Below, piece by piece: positions 3,539 through 64,000 of a stretch of 64,000 nucleotides of DNA; position 1 is the stretch's first letter; each line of letters starts with the position of its first letter. The notes beneath the pieces were generated by a model. That model had not been told where the DNA came from, ran no database searches, and saw only the letters and a list, made by a program, of their open reading frames with translations. Source of the stretch: Chiloscyllium plagiosum (lineage: Eukaryota); the NCBI RefSeq assembly GCF_004010195.1, contig NC_057738.1, positions 18,555,622 through 18,619,621 of the forward strand. Direction: 5' to 3'. The translations under genes and the position numbers were made by a program.

Positions 3539-4190
3539 CAGCTGATAGCCAAGTTCGTTACCCATGAGGAATTCCTCAACTGGGACCTCAGGTTCATATC
3601 ACACTACAGGTGACCCCACTGCACCAAACACTCTCTCTCTGTCTCTCCCTCTCTCACTCACACACGCACACACATTAATCTATGGGAGAATTAGCATTTG
3701 TAAAATTTGTTTGCAGATACATTCTATTTTGCTCAAAAAGCACACAATCTACAGGCAGTCAATGCAGGCAGTCAATCCATGTGACATTTTATAAATTCCT
3801 ATTTTGGAAATAGAACCAGTCTGACTCAAGATTGGGATACAGATAGACTCTAACCTCACAATATTAATGCATTGTCTGAGCTGAGATGTTACTTTTTTTT
3901 ATATAAAACCTTAAGTTATCTCAAGAATGTGACTTAAAAGAAGTTCTGGGATTTAGATATTAATGAACTGAAACTTGCAACCCATTCTAAAAGATGAAAG
4001 ACTTAACAGCAATCTAGGTTTGTTCAATATATCATTTCAGTTGCATGACATTATGATCTTTTGCGATAAATTCTGTGTCTTATGATCCTGCTCCACAGCT
4101 ACCTGATGAAGGAGCAGAGCTCTGAAAGCTAGTATTTCCAAATAAACCTGTTGGACTATAACCTGGTGTTGTGTGATCTTTAACCTTTGA
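3539..4190 (+). mobile_element. Penelope-like element 3' fragment (GIY-YIG C-terminus, 3' region, hammerhead)
   Basis: 3542-3613 reads LIAKFVTHEEFLNWDLRFISHYR*, like the PLE ORF end (FxT..GLN.D.GF), followed by a CT/CA microsatellite and a terminal hammerhead motif with AATAAA. Confidence 0.75.
4100..4134 (+). ncRNA. Minimal type I hammerhead ribozyme motif (family A)
   Basis: TAC-CTGATGA-AGGAGCAGAGCTCT-GAAA-GCTA-GTA: both core boxes intact, stem II GAGC/GCTC, palindromic AGCT helix III, stem I TAC/GTA. Confidence 0.75.
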
Positions 4191-6436: not shown

Positions 6437-7657
6437 TGTTATGGACTGACTTTGGGCAAGTTTCTCCAAGTTGTTGCGGTTCCAGACAGATGTCTCAAAG
6501 CACTAAACTACCAGAAGAGGAGGGATGAACAGGTTCCCCTTCTGTATTCACCCACCCCCTTCTATTGGTCAAACAAAGTTAATTTGAAAAGCGGTCCTCG
6601 CTAATGGATACCTTTCTCACAGAACAAATTAATTTCTATTTTAGCAAGGAACACACTCTTGAGTTATCAGATGAAGTCTATTTGTTACTAAATGCAAAAA
6701 TAAATAATGATACAACACACATGCACACAGAAATAAGAATTGAGTCCAAAAAAGGATGATAGAAATTAAAAGATGTATGTATTAAATTCTCTGAGTGGAT
6801 TGTGAAGAGTCAATAGCAGATCATTAATAGTAGAAAAATCAATTTCAAGATTTTTGGTTTTGCAGTTAATTAAAATTCTTTTGCCCTATGTACTTTTTGT
6901 GATTGTTGTCAGGCAGCATTCAAAGTGAGAGAGGGCTTTGTGTTGCCCTGTTGCCTTTTCAATGGATTGATATAAGTTGGCTTCTTGCATTCAGAATGAG
7001 AAAGCCCTTTTGCCTGCAGTGTCTGGGTGACTAGTGGATGATTCTTCAACTGTGACATTCACAAAACATTAGTGTTCAAACCCATACTAGTACACACAAA
7101 TGCCTTCATTCACCAGAATGCCTTTTTCCATTAATACATTTCCTTCTCTTACCATACACTCAACAGATTTGCTGTCAGTTTTAACCTTTTTTTGGACATT
7201 GGGAATGCAAATTGCAAAAAAAAATCCCTAACAGATAGCTTTCTGCTAGGGAAGAAAATCAGACAGTTATGATCTCTTCCTGTCATGTCTTAGTCTCTGT
7301 TTGAACTTTACTGAAAAATGTGTTGCTGGAAATGCGCAGCAGGTCAGGCAGCATCAAAGGAGATGAAGGGCTTATGCCCGAAATGTTGATTCTCCTGCTC
7401 CTTTGATGCTGCCTGACCTGCTGCGCTTTCGCTTTTCCAGCAACACATTTTTAAGCTCTGATCTCCAGCATCTGCAGTCCTCACTTTTTCCTCTGTTTGA
7501 ACTTTCCCTAATACACTACAGGTGTGACATTCCTGACAGCATTGAATTTACATACGTAGTCTTTTCTTTGTCTGGAACAGTCCCCTTTAAAAAACAAATT
7601 TTGGAATTAAAAGTTAATGTCCATCCTACTTTAGGGCTCTGATCATTCATTGTGGCA
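6437..7657. mobile_element. Candidate solo LTR
   Basis: Starts TGTTATGG and ends GTGGCA; cleanly interrupts the LINE (GATGCACAGG | ATAAGAACACC); TSD only degenerate. Confidence 0.5.
7310..7490. mobile_element. PLE-derived fold-back element (family B) with 15-bp TSD
   Basis: Inverted arms ~7315-7362 / ~7398-7451 around GATGAAGGGCTTATGCCCGAAATGTTG; exact direct repeat CTCTGTTTGAACTTT at 7295-7309 and 7491-7505. Confidence 0.85.
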
Positions 7658-7845: not shown

Positions 7846-7919
7846 TATTTTCCTTTGGACACAGAAGGTTCATCACTCTAGTCGATGCCTTGGCTCGCTT
7901 CCATACTGAGGCTTGGTTT

Positions 7920-8040
7920 GGAGGAGCCAGTTTTGGACTGGGGTGGACAATGTTAAATATCACACAACACCAGGTGACAGTCCAACAGGTTTATTTGGAA
8001 GCACTGGCTTTTGGAGCACTGCTCCTTCATTAGGTGGTTT
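7920..8040 (-). mobile_element. PLE end (family A) with decayed hammerhead
   Basis: Reverse complement reads CAC-CTAATGA-AGGAGCAGTGCTCC-AAAAGCCAGTG...AATAAACCTGTTGGAC, homologous to 4100-4190. Confidence 0.75.
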
Positions 8041-10957: not shown

Positions 10958-11303
10958 CACGGAATCCCTACAGTGTGGAAGTAGACCATTGAATCCATAA
11001 CGACCCTCTGAAGAGCATCCCATCCAGACCTACATCCCTAACCTATCCCTGTATCCCTCCGTTTCCCATGGTTAATCCATATAACCTAAGCATCCTGGAC
11101 ACTGTGGTCAATTTAGCATCACCAATCCACCTGACCTGCACATCTTTGGACTGTGAGAGGAAACCGGAGCACCCGGAGGAAACCTATGTAGACATGGGGA
11201 GAATGTGCAAACTCCACACAGACAGTCGCCCGAAGCTGGAATCAAACCCGGATCCCTAATGCTGTGAAGCAGCAGTGCTAACCACTGAGCCACAATACTG
11301 CTC
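10958..11303 (-). mobile_element. HE1-type SINE
   Basis: tRNA-like head (GTGGCTCAGTGGTTAGCACTGCTG...GGTTTGATTCC), body GTCTGTGTGGAGTTTGCACATTCTCCCC, CR1-like tail. Confidence 0.9.
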
Positions 11304-11344
11304 CGGCCCACTCCCCTATATATACCAACTCGAACCATTTATAT

Positions 11345-11536
11345 CAATCCAAAGATGTGCAAGTTAGGTGAATTGGCCATGCTAAATTGCCCATAGTGTT
11401 CAGGGATGTGTAGGTTAGATGCGTTAGTCAGGGGTAAATGTAGCAGAATGGGTTTAGGTGGGTGGGCGGGATACTCTTTGGAAGGTCGGTATGGACTTGT
11501 TGGGCCAAACAGCCTATTTCCATACTGGGGATTCTA
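11345..11536 (+). mobile_element. HE1-type SINE, 3' half
   Basis: CAATCCAAAGATGTGCAAGTTAGGTGAATTGGCCATGCTAAATTGCCC...GGATTCTA. Confidence 0.85.
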
Positions 11537-19840: not shown

Positions 19841-20851
19841 GAAGGATTGGTGCTGGGCCCTCTACTTTTTGTCATTTACATAAATAATTTGGATGCGAGC
19901 ATAAGAGGTACAGTTAGTAAGTTTGCAGATAACACCAAAGTTGGAGGTGCAGTGGACAGCGAAGAGGGTTACCTCAGATAACAACAGGATCTGGACCAGA
20001 TGGGCCAATGGGCTGAGAAGTGGCAGATAGAGTTTAATTCAGATAAATATGAGGTGCTGCATTTTGGGAAAGCAAATCTTAGCAGAACTTATACACTTAA
20101 TGGTAAGGTCCTAGGGAGTGTTGCTGAACAAAGAAACCTTGGAATGCAGGTTCGTAGCTCCTTGAAAGTGGAGTCGCAGGTAGATAGGATAGTGAAGAAG
20201 GTGTTTGGTGTGCTTTCCTTTATTGGTCAGAGTATTGAGTACAGGAGTTGGGAAGTCATGTTGCGGATGTACAGGACATTGGTTAGGCCACTGTTGGAAT
20301 ATTGCATGCAATTCTGGTCTCCTTCCTATCGGAAAGATGTTGTGAAACTTGAAAGGGTTCAGAAAAGATTTACAAGGATGTTGCCAGGGTTGGAGGACCT
20401 GAGCTACAGGGAGAGGCAGAACAGGCTGGGGCTGTTTTCCCTGGAGCATTGGGGGCTGAGGGATGACCTTATAGAGGTTTACAAAATTATGAGGGACATG
20501 GATAGGATAAATAGACAAAGTATTTTCCCTGGGGTCGGGGAGTCCAGAACTAGAGGGCATAGGTTTAGGGTGAGAGGGAAAAGAGATAAAAGAGACCAAA
20601 GGGGCAACGTTTTCACCCAGAGGGTGGTACATGTATGGAATGAGCTGCCAGAGGATGTGGTCGAGGCTGGTACAATTGCAACATTTAAGAGGCATTTGGC
20701 TGGGTATATGAATAGGAAGAGTTTGGAGGGATATGGGCCGGGTGCTGACAGGTGGGACTAGATTGGGTTGGGATAACTGATCAGCATGGACGGGTTGGAC
20801 CGAAGGGTCTGTTTCCATGCTGTACATCTCTATGACTCTATAACTCTATGA
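19841..20851 (+). mobile_element. Young 5'-truncated CR1 LINE (RT C-terminal half plus 3' UTR)
   Basis: GLVLGPLLFVIYINNL...SKFADNTK, then a 253-aa ORF 20000-20761; one in-frame stop; (ATGACTCT)-type tail. Confidence 0.95.
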
Positions 20852-20951
20852 GAAGTAATGAAAATGATAAATGAAAGGAAAGAGAATCAAAACCATTGAA
20901 AAAGTAAAAACTGCACTGCACTCTACTTATAAAAATACTTATTAAAAAAAG

Positions 20952-21153
20952 TCATGATTCGGAGATGCTGGTGTTGGACTGGGGTGTACAAAGTTAAAAA
21001 TCACACAACACCAGGTTATAGTCCAACAGGTTTAATTGGAAGCACTAGTTTTCAGAGCGTTGCTCCTTCATCAGGTGGTTGTGACAACTGAAAGCGAGTG
21101 CTTCCAATTAAACCTGTTGGACTATAACCTGGTGTTGTGTGATTTTTAACTTT
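20952..21153. mobile_element. PLE-derived fold-back element (family A) with hammerhead
   Basis: Arms ~20990-21054 and ~21088-21153 are near-perfect inverted repeats; minus strand 21043-21077 reads CAC-CTGATGA-AGGAGCAACGCTCT-GAAA-ACTA-GTG. Confidence 0.85.
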
Positions 21154-22229: not shown

Positions 22230-24443
22230 GTCCAAACATGCTTGACCATTGCTGTACAACTAAAGATACCTACTGGTCCATCTCCCATCCGCATTTTGGA
22301 AAATCAGACCACAAATGCCATGCTCCTCCTCTCAGCTCGCAAGCAGAAATTGGAGTGTAAGAATTCACTACTGAATGTAGTGCAGTATTAATCTGAGGCA
22401 ACAGAAGGACGTCCATGTGATTGCTTCGAATTGGTGGGCTTGTTCATATTCAAGAACTCCGTAACCAACGTAACTGAGTTTGCCACTACAGTTATGGACT
22501 TTGTACATTTGTAGAAGGCAGCATGACAAAGACATTTATCTGAATGTTTCCCAACCGGAAACCATGGATGAACCGAGAGATCCGCTCTGCACTAAAGTCC
22601 AGGTCTGAGGCACTCAAAGCAGGCAACCGTGATCCATGTAGGAAATCCAGAAATAACCTTTGGAAGGCCTTCAGGGATGCAAAGAGGCAAAATCAAACTA
22701 AGCTTGAGACCCAGGCCAAGCACATGGACACCCATCATTTGTGGCAAGGCTTACCTAACAGGCTACTAAGCAAAGTGAATGGAATTTCTGGCAACAGTAC
22801 ATCCCTACCTAATGAGCTCATTGCATTCAATGCTCACTTTGAAGGGAAAGGCAGTGAGAAGATATCACCTGTCACATCAGTCTTGGATACACTTGTCTCC
22901 TTGGTCATCACCGCAGGTGTTAGATCGGCCTTCTTGAGGGTGAACCCACAGAAAGCAACTGGCCTGGATGGAATCCCCAACTGTACACTCAGATCCTCTG
23001 TGAAGCTGGGTGTAATCACAGACATCTTTAACCTCTCCTGACTACAATCTGAAGTCCGCATCTTCTTCAAGAAGACCACCATTGGCACAGTGCCAAAGAA
23101 AAATCATGCAGCATGTCTCAATGACTACTGCCCAGAGGCTCCGAACTCCATAATTATGAAGTGCTTCGAGAAATTTGTCATGGCTCATATCAACTCCAGC
23201 CTCCCAGATTGTCTTGATCCTTTGCAATCCGCCTACTGGCTCATCAGGTCCATGGTAGATGCTATGTCCCTGGCCCTATATTCATCCCGGGAACATCTGG
23301 ACAACAAGGATACATATGTCAGCCTCCTATTTATTGATCACAGCCGCACTTTTGACACCATCATTCCAAACAAGCTCATCTGCAAACTCTGTGACCCAGG
23401 AGTAACTGGATCCCTGAATTCCTGACCTACAGATCGCATATCAGTAAGGATAGACTGAATCATATCCACCATGATAATCTTCAACACCAGTGCCCCGCAA
23501 GGCTGTGTACTCAGCCCACTACTGTTCTCCTTATGCAGATACAACTGTGTGGCCAACTTCCGACTCAACTCCATTTACAAATTTACATAATTGCACAAGC
23601 GTTGTAGGGCGGATCTCAAACAACAATGAGACAGAATACAGGAAAGAGATTGAGTGTTTAATGGCACAGTGTAAAGACAACAATCTCTCCATCAATGTCA
23701 GCAAAACAAAGGAGCTGGCCATTGACTTCAGGAAGCAGAGTAGAGCGCGCATCTCTGTCTGCATCAATGGTGCTGAGTTGGAGATGGTCCAGTGTGTCAA
23801 GTTCCTGGGAGTGATGATCACCAACGATCTATCCTGGTCCACCCATGTTGATATGATGATCAAGAAATCACAACAATGTTTCTACTTCCTCAGGAGGCTA
23901 AGGAAATTCGGCATGCCCACAAAGACTCTTACCAATTATACAGATGCACCAGAGAAACCATTCTATCCGGATGCATCACTGTGTGGTTTGGCAACTGCTC
24001 TTCCTAAGATTTGCAAGAAACTACAGGGAGTTGTGAACACAGCTCAGTCCATCACACAAACAATCCTTCCATCCATTGACTCCATCTATACGCCCTGCCG
24101 GCTTGGGAAAGCAGCCAACATAATCAAAAGACCCCTCCCACCCAAGTTATACCCTCTCCCACCTTCTTTAATTGAGCAGGAGATATAAAAGTGTGAATAC
24201 ACATAAGAAAAGATTCAAGAACAGATTCTTCCCCATTGTTATCACAATGTTAAACAGATCTCTCAAATGTTAGTGTTGAGTTCTCTCTCTGCACCTTCTC
24301 TGTGGCTGTAACACTGTATTCTGCTCTCTGTTCCGCTACCCTGATGCACTTTGTATGGTACAATCTTCCTGTATGCCATGCAAAATAACGCTGTTCACTG
24401 TACCTTGGTATGTGAGACATCAATAAAACAAATCAAATCAAAT
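22230..24443 (+). mobile_element. Rex1/Babar-clade LINE, decayed ORF
   Basis: FPNRKPWMN, KATGLDGIP, LNDYCP, LDPLQSAY, PQG(C)VLSP, INVSKTKELAIDFRK, VKFLGV across frameshifted ORFs; AATAAA plus (CAAAT)n tail. Confidence 0.9.
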
Positions 24444-24802
24444 GAATGATTATTGCCATATCCAATTAACCCTCAACAATCTGGTTCAGAAATATCATTT
24501 TTAAGTCTAACACTACATGCTCACAAACAGTTTTTCCATTTTGGAATCTGATGAGGGCATAGCTTCATCAAAGAAGTGCAGTCAGAGTTTGCGGCATCAC
24601 AAGCAGCTCCATAGATCAGGAGGAGAGGAAGAAGAATGGGAGAACAATAGGAAGAAGGGATTTATTAATTAGGAGAACAGACAGGCATTTCTGGGCTGTA
24701 GACCTGATTCTACGTTAGAAATCTAGTGCTAGGGTCAAGGATGTCACAGTGTGGCTGCAGAGCATTCTTCTGGGGAAGGGTGAACAGCTAAAGGTCGTGA
24801 TT

Positions 24803-25100
24803 AGAGTGATGCTGGAAAGGCACAGCCGGTCAGGCAGCATCTGAGGAACAGGAAAATTGGCGTTTCCGGCAGGAGCCCTTCATCAGGAAGCTTTGTGGGT
24901 GGAGAGATAAATGGAAGGGGTGGGGCTGGGGAGAAGGTAGCTGGGAGTGCAATAGATGGATAGAGGAAGGGGGTAAAGGTGAAGCTCGGAGAGGAGGGTG
25001 GAGCGGATAAGTGGGAAGGAAGATTGACAGGTGAGACAGGTCATGAAGATGGTGCTGAGCTGAAAGTTTGGAACTGGGGTAAGGTCGGAGAGGGGAAATG
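24803..25100 (-). mobile_element. PLE 3' fragment (family B) with hammerhead motif
   Basis: Homologous to 62815-63125; minus strand reads CTGATGA-AGGGCTCCTGCCG-GAAA-CGCC (24859-24886). Confidence 0.8.
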
Positions 25101-26131: not shown

Positions 26132-26350
26132 CCATGATGTGGAGATGCCAGTGTTGGACTGGGATGGACAAAATCAGAAGTCACACAGCACAAGGTTTTA
26201 GCCCAACAGGTTTATTTGAAATCACAAGCTTTCGGAGTGCAGTCCCTTCATCAGGTGAAGTCACCTGACAAAGGGAGCAGCGCTCTAAAAGCTTGTGATT
26301 TCAAATAAACCTGTTGGACTAAAACCTGGTGTCATGTGACTTCTGATTGT
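26132..26350. mobile_element. PLE-derived fold-back element (family A) with two back-to-back hammerhead motifs
   Basis: Symmetry centre at 26259-26260; minus 26222-26258 TCAC-CTGATGA-AGGGACTGCACTCC-GAAA-GCTT-GTGA; plus 26261-26298 is a decayed copy. Confidence 0.85.
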
Positions 26351-26923
26351 GTTTAAAGTTAACAAGGCGTCAGGACTAGATCGGATGCATCCAAGGATTT
26401 TGGCGGAAGTAGACATTATAGGGACACTGATCATTATATTTCAGTTTTTCTGACCTTCAGGGGAGGTGCTAGAAGACTACACAATTGCAGACACCACACC
26501 CTTGTTCTGAACAATGTTGCAAGGTTAAGCCCAGTAATTACAGACCAGACAGTTTAACTTTAATGATGGGACCACCCTATAAAGAGTTATTCAGATGGTC
26601 TATAATCATGTCAAAAAGGTTGGGTTGAATAGGAAGTGCCAAAATAGATTTCTAAATAAGAATTCATGCTTGACTAATTTGCTGAATTTTTCGAACAAAA
26701 TAACTGGAAGGATGTATGAGGGCAATGCTATTGATGTGATAAACTTCCAATCAGCATCTGGTACAATGCCACACAATGGACATGTGAGAAAAAAACATAA
26801 TTTATGAATAAAAGGGTCAGTAGCAAAATGGATACAACATTGCTTGAGGGATAGGAAATGGGGATTAATTAGCAATAGATTTTTTTCGGGGGCTTGAGGA
26901 ATGTTTGTCATAGATTTCCCCAG

Positions 26924-27919: not shown

Positions 27920-28333
27920 CCAGAGTTCAGTATTGGGACCCTTGCTTTTCCCTGTATATATAAATAAATTTTCTAGTTCTTTAAACTTGTAGGTGTGAAT
28001 AATAAGGGGAGAGTCCTTCAGACTGCTTGAACCTCAGGTTTTATTCATCTCCAATATGTATGCAACCACACAGAGTAGAGCAAATAAGACTTGGATATTA
28101 CAGGCTTAGATTGCCATGGGGAAATATGATGTTGTGACAACACCGAAGACATGGCTTGGGATGATACAAAACTTTGAAGCATTGTAATCTATGAAGAGGA
28201 TAGTGTAAGACTTCAGTAGTACATAGACAAGCTGGTGGGATCAGCAGATTGTTGGCACATAAATTTAAATGTGAAGAAATGTGAGGGGATGCATTTTGAA
28301 AGAAAGATCAGGGACAGACAATAAAATAAGAGG

Positions 28334-28481
28334 AGTTCAGGCAGCATCCAAGGAGCTTCGAAATCGACATGCCCGAAACGTCGATTTCGAAGCTCCTTAG
28401 ATGCTGCCTGAACTGCTGTGCTCTTCCAGAACCACTAATCCAGGATCTGGTTTCCAGCATCTGCAGTCATTGTTTTTACCT
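28334..28481. mobile_element. PLE-derived fold-back element (family B) with 14-bp TSD
   Basis: Arms AGTTCAGGCAGCATCCAAGGAGCTTCGAAATCGAC / GTCGATTTCGAAGCTCCTTAGATGCTGCCTGAACT; AATAAAATAAGAGG at 28320-28333 and 28482-28495. Confidence 0.85.
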
Positions 28482-29214
28482 AATAAAATAAGAGGTGCAA
28501 TTCTAAAGGGGGTAGAGAAGCAAAGAGTCATGGACATGCATGTTCACAGATCATTGAATATGGCAAGAAAGATGGAGGGCATATTTCATAAAGCATATAG
28601 AATCCTGGACTTAACAGAGATATAGAGTTCAATAGCAAGAAAGTAATGTCAAACTTGTCCAACAAACCTTTTTAGACTTCAGCTGGATGTTTGTGTACAG
28701 TTCTGGGCACCAAACAAAAAGGATGTAAAGGCGTTGGAGTGAAAGCAGAAGAGATTTACAGGAGCGATTCCAGGGATGAGAGACTTCCGTTATGAGAATT
28801 GATTGGAAAAGTTGGAACTGTTCTCCTTGGAGAGAAGAAGGCAAACAGGAGATCTGATAGACATTTCCGAAAATCATGAGGAGGTTGGTTAGAATTGATA
28901 GGGATAGTTCCTGCTTTAAAAAAGATCAAGAATAAGAGGGCACTGATTTAAAGTGATTTGCACAAAAAGAAAACAGGTGAGAAAAATCATTTTCATACAG
29001 TGAGTGGTTCCAGTCTGGAATGTACTGGAATGTGGTTCAATCAAGGCATTCAAGAGAGAACTGGATAATTATTTAAAAATTTTGAAAATGTATAAGCATA
29101 TGTGAAAAGGCTGGAAAGTGGCACTAACTCATAATGTTAATGTGGAGTCAGACACGATGGGCCAAATAACCTCTTTCAACATTGCAACACTTCTGTATTA
29201 TACCATTTATTCAT

Positions 29215-41309: not shown

Positions 41310-41805
41310 GTGGTTGAGGTTACCACACTGTAGGAGGGGTGTGGAGTCTGTAGAGAGGGTGCAGGGGAGGTTTACCAGGATGCTGCCTGTATTGGAGTGT
41401 ATTAGTTATAAGGAGAGGTTCGACAAATTTGGATTGATTTTACCAGAGTGGCAGAGGCTGAGGGTGTGACCTGATGGAAGTGCATAAAATTGTGAGAAGC
41501 ATGAATAGAGTGGAAATGTCAGATACTAGGATGCATGGGTTTAGGATGGGAGTGTCAAAGTTTAAAAAAGATGTGCAAGGTAAGTTTTTACATAGGGTGG
41601 TAGGTGCCTGGAACACGGTGCCAAGGGAAGTGGTAGAAGCAGATATGATAGCAATATCTAAGAGGCAGTTATGTAAACAGGCAGAGAATAGAATGATATG
41701 TACCACATGCAGGCAAATGGGTACAGTTAAGAATGGCATCATGGTTGGCATAGACATAGTGGGTTGAAGGGCCTGTTCCTGTGCTGTACTCTTCTATGCT
41801 CTATC
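41310..41805 (+). mobile_element. CR1 3' fragment
   Basis: VERVQGRFTRMLP...HRVVGAWNTVPREVVEA. Confidence 0.88.
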
Positions 41806-41877
41806 AGTCTGGGAAAGATAGAAGCTGTCTAGGGACTGATTGTTTTATTTGAGCAGGAGATGATTTTGTTTATTTAT

Positions 41878-42470
41878 AGAGTTGTAGAGTTGTACAGAAC
41901 AGAAACAGACCCTTCAATCCAACTCATCCACCCCAACCAGATATCCTAAACTGATCCAGTCCCATTTGCCAGCATTTGCCCCATATCCCTCTAAACCCTT
42001 CCTATTCATGTACTCATTTAGATGCCTTTTAAATGTTGTAAATGTATTCACCTTCACCACCTACTCTGGCAGCTCATTCCATAAATACACCACCATTTGT
42101 GTGAGAAAGTTGCTCCTCAAGGTCTTTTTAATCTTTTTCCTCTCACCTTAAACCCATGCCCCGTAGTTTTGGACTTTTCTACCTATGAGAAGGACCTTGC
42201 ATATTCACCCTATCCATGCCCCTCATGATTTTATACATGGTCAGCCCTCAGCCTCCAACACTCCAGGGAAAAACACCCCAGGCTATTCAGGCTCTTTCTA
42301 TACTCAAACCCTTCAATTCCGACAATATCCTTATGAATCTTTTCAGAAATGTTTCAAGTTTAACAACCATCTTTCCTATAGCTGGGAGACCAGAATTGAA
42401 TGAAGTATATTAAATACGGTCTCACCAATGTCCTCTACAGCGACAACACCTATACTCGATGCACTGACCA
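41878..42470 (-). mobile_element. CR1 3' fragment
   Basis: Antisense to 20240-20840 with more divergence. Confidence 0.85.
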
Positions 42471-56670: not shown

Positions 56671-58010
56671 GTCTGGTCAATGCGATCTGTTTCATTAATG
56701 AATGTGCAAGCCAAATGGGTGAAATTGTGATATGCATATTTCGCACTTGACACTGAACAAAGATAGAGTGTCGGACCTCAGCGTATGAGTGGAGATCCCA
56801 GACAGTGACCGGAGTGTTGGATCATGAGATGTAAATGGTACTCAAATAATTTGGAACCTGAGTTCTTGAAGCTGAACATGCCATGACCTTGACTTTAAGT
56901 AACGCAATTCCACCACTTCCTCGATTCACTCGTGCTATAACTTTCAATCAATGGTGTGTCTCAAAACATTTGCCTCAGTCAATTTACCCAGGCATGAAGG
57001 AATGTTCCAGCTGGCTACTTTAACAACTGCCTGTGACTTAAGCTCCTGCTCTACTTCTCAGTGCAAACAATTAATAATGGTGCTCGTGAGCTAAGTCCTT
57101 CCCTCTTGTGCAGTCAGCTGTTACAGTAACCAGCTGGAAATTCCCTTCAATGTGCAATGGACTCTGAGACTAGAACACAGATATCATAAAACATGCGGTT
57201 GATTAAAATTAAATGTCATTGTGGAGGAAAGAATTACCATAAGGACACAAGTTGTGGCTGAGCTGCTAATTGGCACAGTGCCGAAATAAAGGCCAGACCA
57301 GAAGATACGATGGTGAGCTAATGCAGTAAGCTGCAACCGATAGGAGGCACACAGGTGGCAATAGAAAAGGGGAGAAGTAGATTTGAGAATGTTAACAGAG
57401 TAATGGTGGTGTGAACAATCTTGACTGTGTGGCTGGCAGTAATGGTGGTGAGACGGAAGCAGAACCCAGCAGAACTACACATTGGGCTTGAGAGATCTGG
57501 AGGGAGGATGACAGCAGGTCTGGTGAGTTGAGTCTGAAACCTTTGCATCCTGAGAACATTAAAATAATTGGTGGAGTGGGGTGTCACGACAGCATGTCGG
57601 CAGTTAGGAAAGGAAAAGAATAAGCCATTCTGTCCTAATTCTTTCATTGTATATCATGGTGATGGCTATGGTTATGAGTGTAGTCAATTAAACCCATTGT
57701 CATCAGCATCCTTCCATTTACAGAAGTTAAATTATTGACACAGCTTCGTATCTACTGCAGAATCAAACTAATTTCATCAAATTTAACTGCTTCTTGCTAT
57801 CTGCCAGGTGAATTTAAAAGAGAAAGTTATTTTATTGCAGAATTGTATTGTTTATTCATTCCTCAATGGTGAACAATGATTAACTCAAACTACTTTTAAT
57901 TGTTTCAGATTTAGCCAAACAAATGTTTATTTGATGTATGTATTGGCAAATGAATGACTTTTTTTTGTCCTGCAAACATTTGACACTGTGGGGTATGACA
58001 TTCTGAAGTA

Positions 58011-58583
58011 CATGATGTGGAAGTGCCAGTGTTGGACTGGGGTGAGCAAAGTTAAAAATCACACAAACGCCAGGTTATAGTCCAACAGGCTTAACTGGAA
58101 GCACTAGCTTTCAGAGCGCTGCTCCTTCATCAGTTAGCTAGTGGGGCAGGATCACAGGACAATTGTGTGTCCACTAGTTACCTGACAAAGGAGCAGTGCT
58201 CCAAGGGCTTGTACTTCCAAATAAACCTGTTGGACTATAATCTGGTGTCGTGTGATTTTAACTTTGGTATAGAATGTCATTGGAAAGAGGGCCTCTTAAT
58301 CCTCAGCTGGCTTTCCTTCATGGTGCCAATCAAGGTCAAATGGATCACATTTTGATAATCTGATGAGTTAATGAAGTTCAGTCTTAAAAACCTCTCTGCC
58401 AAGGAATGTTTTACCACATCAGCAGGACAAATGAGCTGGTATGGAGAGGAACCTGGAGTGTCACTGGTGGGAACCTGAGATGCCAGTGAAGGAATTACAG
58501 GCATACCAGGTGGGCTGGAGATGAGTCCATTCCAAATAAACCTGTTGGGCTCTAACCTGGTGTTGTGTAATTTTTAACTTTAT
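58011..58583. mobile_element. PLE-derived fold-back element (family A) with extra arm copy
   Basis: Arms ~58048-58145 / ~58171-58265; minus 58102-58136 has an intact core CTGATGA-AGGAGCAGCGCTCT-GAAA-GCTA-GTG; third arm 58530-58581. Confidence 0.8.
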
Positions 58584-62803: not shown

Positions 62804-64000
62804 GGTTCTGGATTAGTGGTGCTGGAAGAGCACAGCAGTTCAGGCAGCATTCCAGAAGCAGTAAAATTGATGTTTCGGGCAAAAGCCCTTCATCAGGAAT
62901 ACAGGCAGAGTGCCTGAAGCGTGGAGAGATAAATGAGAGGAGGTGGGGCTTGGGAGAAAGTAGCATAGAGTACAATAGATGAGTGGGTGAGGGGATGAAG
63001 GTGATAGGTCAGGGAGGAGGATGCAGTGGATAGGTGGAAAAGAAGATAGGCAGGTAGGACAAGTCATGGGGACAGTGCTGAGCTGGAAGTTTGGAACTGG
63101 GGTGAGGTGGGGGAAGGGGAAATGAGGAAACTGTTGAAGTCCACATTGATGCCCTGGGGTTGAAGCCACACCGACCTGTGGCCCAACATTTCAATTCCCC
63201 CTCCCACTCTGCCGAGGACATGGAGATCCTGGGCCTCCTTCACNNNNNNNNNNNNNNNNNNNNNNNNNNNNNNNNNNNNNNNNNNNNNNNNNNNNNNNNN
63301 NNNNNNNNNNNNNNNNNNNNNNNNNNNNNNNNNNNNNNNNNNNNNNNNNNNNNNNNNNNNNNNNGTTCCTGCGGTGGCAGGGGAAAGTGCCAGGATGGGA
63401 GGGTGGGTGGTAGGGGCGCGTGGACCTGACCAGGTAGTCATGGAGGGAAGGGTCTTTGCAGAAGGCGGAAAGGGGTGGGGAGGGAAATATATCCCTGGTG
63501 GTGGGGTCTGTTTGGAGGTGGTGGAAATGTCGGTGGATGATTTGGTTTATGCTAAGGTTGGTAGGGTGGAAGGTGAGCACCAGGGGCGTTCAGTCCTTGT
63601 TACGATTGGAGGGGTTGGGTCTGAGGGCAGAGGTGCGGGATGTGGATGAGATGCGTTGGAGGGTATCTTTAACCACGTGAGAAGGGAAATTACAGTCTCT
63701 AAAGAAGGAGGCCATCTAGTGTGTTCTGTGGTGGAACTGGTCCGCCTGGGAGCCGATACGGCGGAGGCATAAGAATTGGGAATACGGGATGGCATTTTTG
63801 CAGGAGGTAACGTGGGAAGAGGTGCAATCCAGGTAGCTGTGGGAGTCAGTGGATTTGTAAAAAATGTCAGTGTCAAGTCGGTCGTCATTAATGGAGATGG
63901 AGAGGTCCAGGAAGGGGAGGGAGGTGTCAGAGATGCTCCAGGTAAATTTAAGGTCAGGGTGGAATGTATTGGTGAAGTTGATGAATTGCTCAACCTCCTT
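62804..64000 (-). mobile_element. Penelope-like retroelement (RT C-terminus, GIY-YIG, 3' end with family B hammerhead)
   Basis: LTFHPTNL...PPLSAF.KD.SL.DYLVRS...PGTFPCHRRN, LQPQGINVDF, HFNSPSHS; hammerhead CTGATGA-AGGGCTTTTGCCC-GAAA-CATC on the minus strand at 62869-62896; runs off the window end. Confidence 0.9.
63244..63363. other. Assembly gap
   Basis: Run of N. Confidence 0.99.

Follow-up and report, generated by a model that had tools for sequence, protein, structure and literature searches.

A 181-bp hairpin with a broken hammerhead as a small example of the published insertion pattern of Penelope-like elements

What kind of event leaves a strong hairpin, with part of a hammerhead ribozyme inside it, between two identical copies of a short target sequence? 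The locus that raises this question lies at 7310-7490 of a 64-kb stretch of DNA, the whole of which was analysed and is referred to here as the window. The 181 nt are bracketed by the exact direct repeat CTCTGTTTGAACTTT (15 bp, 33% G+C), present on the plus strand at 7295-7309 and again at 7491-7505, just as the sequence-only reading had described it. Exact repeats of at least 15 nt at a spacing of 60-400 nt were found twice in the window, this pair included, and the other case lies inside two copies of a repeat. Among random flank pairs, 1 of 2975 scored as high as the 7295/7491 duplication. In public contigs the DNA on either side of the insert has single-copy depth (about 8-16).

The overall layout is that of a 128-nt end of a Penelope-like element (PLE) which carries, on its 5' side, a 52-nt inverted copy of a part of itself. 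The predicted fold of the 181 nt has an energy of -96.8 kcal/mol (z -11.1), and 0 of 200 shuffled sequences were as stable. The hairpin proposed earlier is thus real, but its arms are not about 48 bp long: the left arm measures 52 nt (7311-7362) and the right arm 58 nt (7398-7455), and the latter is not terminal. The left arm is the reverse complement of the right one with 50 of 52 aligned bases identical, and constitutes a tail-less copy of the PLE end lying on the minus strand, head-to-head with the rest and with its 3' end outward. The right arm, which the alignment identifies as sense pLTR on the plus strand, additionally contains a 6-nt tandem duplication at about 7424-7429; these letters are absent in 134 of 414 family RNA reads, and the duplication is copy-specific. 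Outside the right arm, and on this side only, follow 35 nt (7456-7490, plus strand) that represent the PLE 'tail' and the fixed 3' end of the family. In all four runs the loose ends of public contigs concentrate at two places, 7491-7493 and 7456, and these pile-ups mark the fixed 3' end and a tail common to the subfamilies. Since family members reach 7491-7493, the first 1-3 bases of the right duplication copy are family sequence too and the strict length of the duplication is 12-15 bp, which fits priming on a short match.

Between the left duplication and the left arm there is a single plus-strand base, 7310, which does not belong to the family, as judged from the sequence and from the family continuation at the loose ends at 7315; it is either non-templated or mutated. 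The inner junction falls at 7362/7363, where comparison with the intact family sequence upstream reveals one common base (G) and no local fold-back stem. A stretch of 31 nt at 6908-6938, in single-copy DNA 435 nt upstream, is 77% like the junction region 7343-7373, probably by chance.

The insert is almost certainly an extremely 5'-truncated, dead-on-arrival insertion of an endonuclease-bearing PLE. Positions 7362-7427 are about 80% identical to the minus-strand segments 62894-62829 and 24884-24817, the first of which belongs to a longer PLE remnant (62806-64000, minus strand) where sequence comparison recognises a hammerhead-bearing end together with the reverse transcriptase (RT) thumb, the linker and the GIY-YIG C-terminus. 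Ahead of this end, 63165-63079 matches the last residues of the homologous protein P0007, that is, the C-terminus of its GIY-YIG domain, at 72%, and 64000-63365 matches the RT thumb and linker of the same protein at 66% (E 1e-80). The remnant is itself broken, comprising a tail-less end, an N gap and an inverted endonuclease piece on the plus strand (63169-63243), and its host is a LINE-like repeat. The earlier proposal of a minimal PLE retro-insertion therefore gains support from the 80% identity to an end that follows a GIY-YIG C-terminus, and from the inverted truncated copy.

The two short PLE peptides of the window matched no Pfam family, and the link came through their homologues. P0007 contains RVT_1 (E 9e-5, below the Pfam cut-off) and GIY-YIG (above the cut-off), and the RVT_1 cut-off is passed by P0001, P0002 and P0057. 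The best relatives are shark and ray proteins, the top one at 87% identity, which makes the host shark-like. An RT followed by GIY-YIG is described as the defining order of canonical PLEs (PMC8557442). A Cys motif is present in the linker of P0007 and P0052, and its start is seen in the window before the N gap. A Cys-rich motif between RT and endonuclease is reported for Neptune and Nematis (PMC8557442), so that the linker points to one of these two clades, with Neptune as the probable clade of the element. The 7310-7490 copy itself contains no ORF and, being without a gene and with a broken ribozyme, has no likely function, although its read-through RNA would form a 50-bp hairpin. A decayed RT gene of another sort lies in pieces at 22544-24188, and Pfam matches ALKBH8_N close to the end of the gene (E 6e-9); we take the gene to be a LINE of a kind other than the window's many CR1-like pieces.

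A truncated hammerhead core had also been claimed for the hairpin, and motif comparison upholds this. When aligned to copies with an intact core, 7363-7391 (plus strand) appears as the remnant of a minimal type I hammerhead that keeps A6-A9, an extra A, helix II (GGGC/GCCC) and GAAA, while the inverted arm has taken the place of C3, U4 and the helix I 5' strand; the core numbering (C3, U4, A6-A9) is the one we take to apply to the family copies. The CpGs of the helix III and cleavage region have both decayed in this copy (7384, 7387), and most family contigs read C there. Intact cores occur in the window at 24863-24886 and 62873-62896 and also in family contigs; the intact copies combine the core, the extra base after position 9, a 4-bp helix II (G10.1-C11.1), GAAA and a palindromic helix III region, and in a partial check of helix I three of four pairs were found. 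Rfam returned nothing at gathering score across the 64-kb window and, at E values up to 10, no hammerhead family for the 7310-7490 copy or for an intact one, so the hammerhead identity rests on the motif comparison. In a PLE hammerhead the change C3G is reported to abolish cleavage, and insertion does not need cleavage (PMC11167929). The loss of C3, U4 and the helix I 5' strand at the junction, together with the decay of two CpGs, leads us to infer that the ribozyme of the 7310-7490 copy is dead. The agreement among public contigs that start near 7362 extends upstream of that point for only about 8-10 bases, a hint that numerous short family copies start just before the ribozyme. A microRNA gene was considered for the hairpin and rejected, the Rfam matches at E up to 10 being confined to hairpin-shaped microRNA models and lying far below the cut-offs of these.

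The insertion can be followed in independent public data. Contigs from two organism-A samples and from organism B (X1, X5, X10) carry the right flank on into the tail, and in X1 and X10 the left flank is joined to 30 and 23 letters of the arm, respectively, which is under the 31-letter bridging rule. The flanks differ between the two species at 16 of 433 bases; being present in both, the insertion is older than their split. An empty allele of the locus was not seen in three DNA-type runs (among the 15 joints listed out of 131), and the flanks have no long match elsewhere in the 64-kb window, which therefore holds no paralogous empty site. The family is very abundant, with 56,879 (X1), 33,319 and 48,518 public contigs in three runs, nearly all of them lying on the element. 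It is present in RNA: one RNA run, sampled at about 2 in 100, gave 1853 reads on repeats and none on the single-copy flanks. Matches to a 19-nt family pattern at one viral and 77 metagenome loci are due to chance, with 0 of 78 aligned over at least 35 nt.

The 7310-7490 copy is one of five short hairpins in the window, which represent two families of PLE ends: family A at 7310-7490 and 28334-28481, and family B at 20950-21153, 26133-26352 and 58011-58266. Their inner junctions are all distinct, none of them more than about 40 nt away from the hammerhead core, and the tail is found on the sense side only in every one of them. In four hairpins the two arms are each other's best match (50/52, 33/34, 63/65 and 73/84), and in the fifth, at 58011-58266, the arms (69/84) are no more alike than unrelated copies. 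Between the two hairpins of family A, which are of different subfamilies, 36 of 43 positions are identical. In four of the five cases the end of the inverted arm coincides with the tail boundary or nearly so, to within a few bases; the exception is the 28334 copy, whose arm ends about 30 nt short. The same boundary also terminates stand-alone tail-less copies at 4076-4187, 58530-58583, 24800-25100 and 62806-63165.

Exact duplications flank two of the five hairpins, namely the 15 bp around the 7310 copy and 14 bp around the 28334 copy. Two others have weak duplications (10/13 and 9/12) that are equalled by 3% and 6% of random pairs, and the flanks of the remaining one (58011-58266) contain no direct duplication. 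The 14-bp case (28320-28495 with its duplications, plus strand) has its own subfamily and its own junction and sits in a LINE-like host repeat. Its flanks fit another copy of that repeat at 19928-20758, on which the two 14-mers fall 2 nt apart in register, and this is as expected if the empty site held a single 14-mer, the match being a distant one of about 60% identity. For the 26133 copy, a search within the window did not confirm a host-repeat register. The earlier interpretation of the flanking repeat as a long duplication of variable length, and not that of a DNA transposon, agrees with these two exact duplications of 15 and 14 bp and unrelated sequence, and with the one-sided tail.

Several further features of the window concern the same kinds of sequence. 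A few bases beyond either end of the 58011 hairpin, its flanks match each other exactly over 10 bp in inverted orientation (57990-58285), which could be due to chance, to two separate insertions or to an inverted target duplication. At 26258-26275 and 58178-58195 both inverted arms have CA where the sense copies have TG, at the same position of the core (n = 2), a pattern that would result if one ancestral CpG had decayed in the two arms of each element, always on the same genomic strand. Single short PLE ends devoid of arms occur at 7914-8039, which keeps the tail, at 4076-4187 and 58530-58583, which end at the tail boundary, and at 1337-1435, which is a distant family-A-like copy. Other local inverted repeats (1-126 with 577-702, 11062-11437 and 41676-42006) are apparently neighbouring LINE- or SINE-like copies in opposite orientation.

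The difference of the junctions in all five hairpins, the mutual best match of the arms in four of them and the existence of one more hairpin with an exact duplication of 14 bp favour the view that the inverted arm is produced during each insertion rather than by a hairpin family that copies itself. Unique breakpoints had been named beforehand as the sign of de novo formation, and indeed no junction is shared among the five window hairpins. In public contigs 131 joints were counted, and the 15 listed each rest on 1-4 contigs per run; among these, joints from arm to sense part are many, with none dominant; because contigs break at repeats, this diversity of joints supports the same view and does not decide it.

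The mechanism to which we assign a probability of roughly 0.6 is one in which both nicked strands act as primers, each at a start site of its own. The outer ends look like the result of primed reverse transcription on a sense RNA, both parts being antisense cDNA that grew inward. The GIY-YIG endonuclease would nick an A/T-rich target on both strands, with about 15 nt between the nicks. Following the in vitro findings of PMC11167929, the end of the bottom strand would then prime at the far end of the tail and copy 128 nt before stopping in the hammerhead core, while the end of the top strand would prime at the near end of the tail and copy 52 nt from the same or a sister RNA. The two cDNA ends would finally be joined with a 1-base overlap, and the fill-in would duplicate the target. 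Such a sequence of two nicks, two starts, joining and fill-in would give rise to head-to-head arms, a one-sided tail, fixed outer ends, a variable junction and a long target-site duplication. The two start sites are supported within the window by the arms of four of the five hairpins and by the four stand-alone tail-less copies, all of which end at or near the tail boundary, and outside it by the protein PAc (Poseidon, from Anolis), which in vitro nicks and extends both A/T-rich strands and has two RT starts that bracket the tail (PMC11167929). The in vitro data come from an element of the Poseidon clade, a family other than that of the 7310 copy, and the window sample amounts to five copies. 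Against double priming stand the arm of the 28334 copy, with its end about 30 nt from the boundary, the limitation of exact duplications to two of the five hairpins, and the stems at the family-B junctions, which are what fold-back predicts.

Fold-back is the alternative that has to be taken most seriously, and as the origin of the 7310 copy it seems possible but doubtful. It supposes that the first cDNA stops in the hammerhead, re-primes on itself or on an antisense template and copies as far as the tail boundary, and is joined to the target thereafter. Near-identical arms fit this as well as they fit double priming, and two observations speak for it: the arms share subfamily-specific letters in four of the five copies, and in all five the stretch covered by the arm is wholly or almost wholly covered by the sense part too; palindromes at inverted junctions have been read as self-priming (PMC3846280). 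The three family-B junctions (20950, 26133 and 58011) have fold-back stems of 5, 8 and 5 bp, to be compared with a background in which stems of at least 5 bp occur in 486 and of at least 8 bp in 7 of 2979 random windows, while the family-A junctions have none. The arms of the 58011 copy, which are no closer to each other than unrelated copies are, speak against this mechanism, and fold-back gives no reason for a stop at the tail boundary. A further hint comes from joints such as 7341 to 7449, seen in one contig of one run, which unite an arm with a sense part that does not contain it. At 7362/7363 the single shared base, the lack of a stem and the coincidence of the arm end with the end of the stand-alone tail-less copies do not favour fold-back, and the other family-A junction likewise has one shared base and no stem. 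Of the earlier suggestion of an abortive fold-back product, formation at each insertion is supported, and the fold-back itself is not favoured for the 7310 copy; for family B it is possible. Double priming and fold-back may both operate.

It is improbable that the copy belongs to a non-autonomous hairpin family, in which PLE proteins would re-insert the whole transcribed 181-nt hairpin as a unit. The tail and the 3' end needed for priming are intact, the contigs are as numerous as stated above, and non-autonomous PLE derivatives are known to exist (PMC8557442; bioRxiv 10.64898/2026.07.22.740005). If such a family were real, it would be a non-autonomous retroelement of MITE-like appearance that moves as double-stranded hairpin RNA and can do without an active ribozyme, and some of its junctions might have spread through the genome. 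The 7362/7363 junction, however, has no second copy in the window. Among 24 of about 142,000 public pieces listed none crosses it and most start exactly there, which is a weak argument because contigs break at repeats. In addition, the ribozyme core is broken and the 50-bp hairpin would bury the template. The hairpin RNA family envisaged in the sequence-only reading thus finds no counterpart in the window, where all five junctions differ and the two family-A hairpins are of different subfamilies. A MITE or another TIR DNA transposon is very unlikely in spite of the short non-coding sequence, the inverted arms and the flanking duplication, since the tail outside the right arm makes the layout unlike that of the MITE-looking palindrome first perceived, the duplications differ in length and sequence, the copies are not uniform in their junctions and what has been inserted is the 3' end of an element that encodes RT and GIY-YIG. 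Equally unlikely is an assembly artefact or a chance flanking repeat: the window has N gaps, one of them beside another PLE copy, and none of the contigs listed spans the whole hairpin, but both outer junctions are found in independent public contigs, including those of a second species, a repeat of this quality would arise by chance in about 1 in 3000 cases or less, and a second hairpin has an exact duplication of its own.

The copy at 7310-7490 is a real and clean small example of a published PLE insertion pattern. An inverted pLTR, an optional tail and a target-site duplication constitute the typical Penelope structure (PMC3846280; PMC8557442; curation guide PMC8969392) and, since these features are already in print, the copy is ordinary as an insertion type. 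The single locus matters little, since the repeat is very abundant and this copy of it is inert. Its kind may be of more use, because both outer ends, the inner junction and the duplication are contained in about 200 bp, so that thousands of such stubs could test whether PLE inversions originate from two-strand priming at two starts or from fold-back self-priming. Such stubs also risk being misfiled as MITEs or as microRNA hairpins, the 7310 copy itself giving microRNA-model matches below threshold.

We found no description of shark mini-hairpins of this kind in a literature search that extended to few subscription journals and to neither Repbase nor Dfam. Very short PLE insertions are reported from Chlamydomonas, with a median of 128 bp (PMC9977147). 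The non-LTR retrozymes (bioRxiv 10.64898/2026.07.22.740005) resemble the 7310 copy in being short, non-coding and pLTR-derived and in having a type I hammerhead, but they are described as head-to-tail tandem units with complete hammerheads, whereas the 7310 copy is one head-to-head unit with a broken one. The assignment of 7310-7490 to the retrozymes was accordingly rejected on account of its single head-to-head unit and the loss of C3, U4 and helix I. The minimal hammerheads of metazoan PLEs, for which opposite-strand pairs 100-700 bp apart are reported (PMC4209133), share with the intact family copies the extra base after position 9, G10.1-C11.1 and the palindromic 15.2-16.2, and scattered single motifs derived from truncated PLEs occur in both. 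Unlike these, the 7310 copy has one broken motif, and helix II of its family measures 4 bp as compared with 7-8 bp in Schistosoma (PMC4209133).

The insertion pattern has in common with the in vitro activity of PAc (PMC11167929) the nicking and extension of both strands, the starts that bracket the tail and the A/T-rich targets. PAc belongs to another clade, and where its two starts are treated in that report the authors tie them to the tail, the inverted copy not being spelled out there. The canonical EN+ PLE unit (PMC3846280; PMC8557442) is similar to the 7310 copy in its head-to-head inverted copy, its hammerhead in the pLTR and its A/T-rich target. The tail of 35 nt on one side compares with a published 30-40 bp (PMC8557442), and the target-site duplication varies in length in both, with 15 bp here and 8-10 bp in the rotifer examples (PMC3846280). 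In contrast to the canonical unit, the 7310 copy is only 181 bp long and non-coding, and its junction lies inside the hammerhead core. In the twin priming of L1 elements, priming from both nicks leaves an inverted 5' segment inside one target-site duplication, and the inverted part represents sequence upstream of the sense part. The 7310 copy is likewise inverted inside one duplication, yet in it the same 52 nt have been copied twice.
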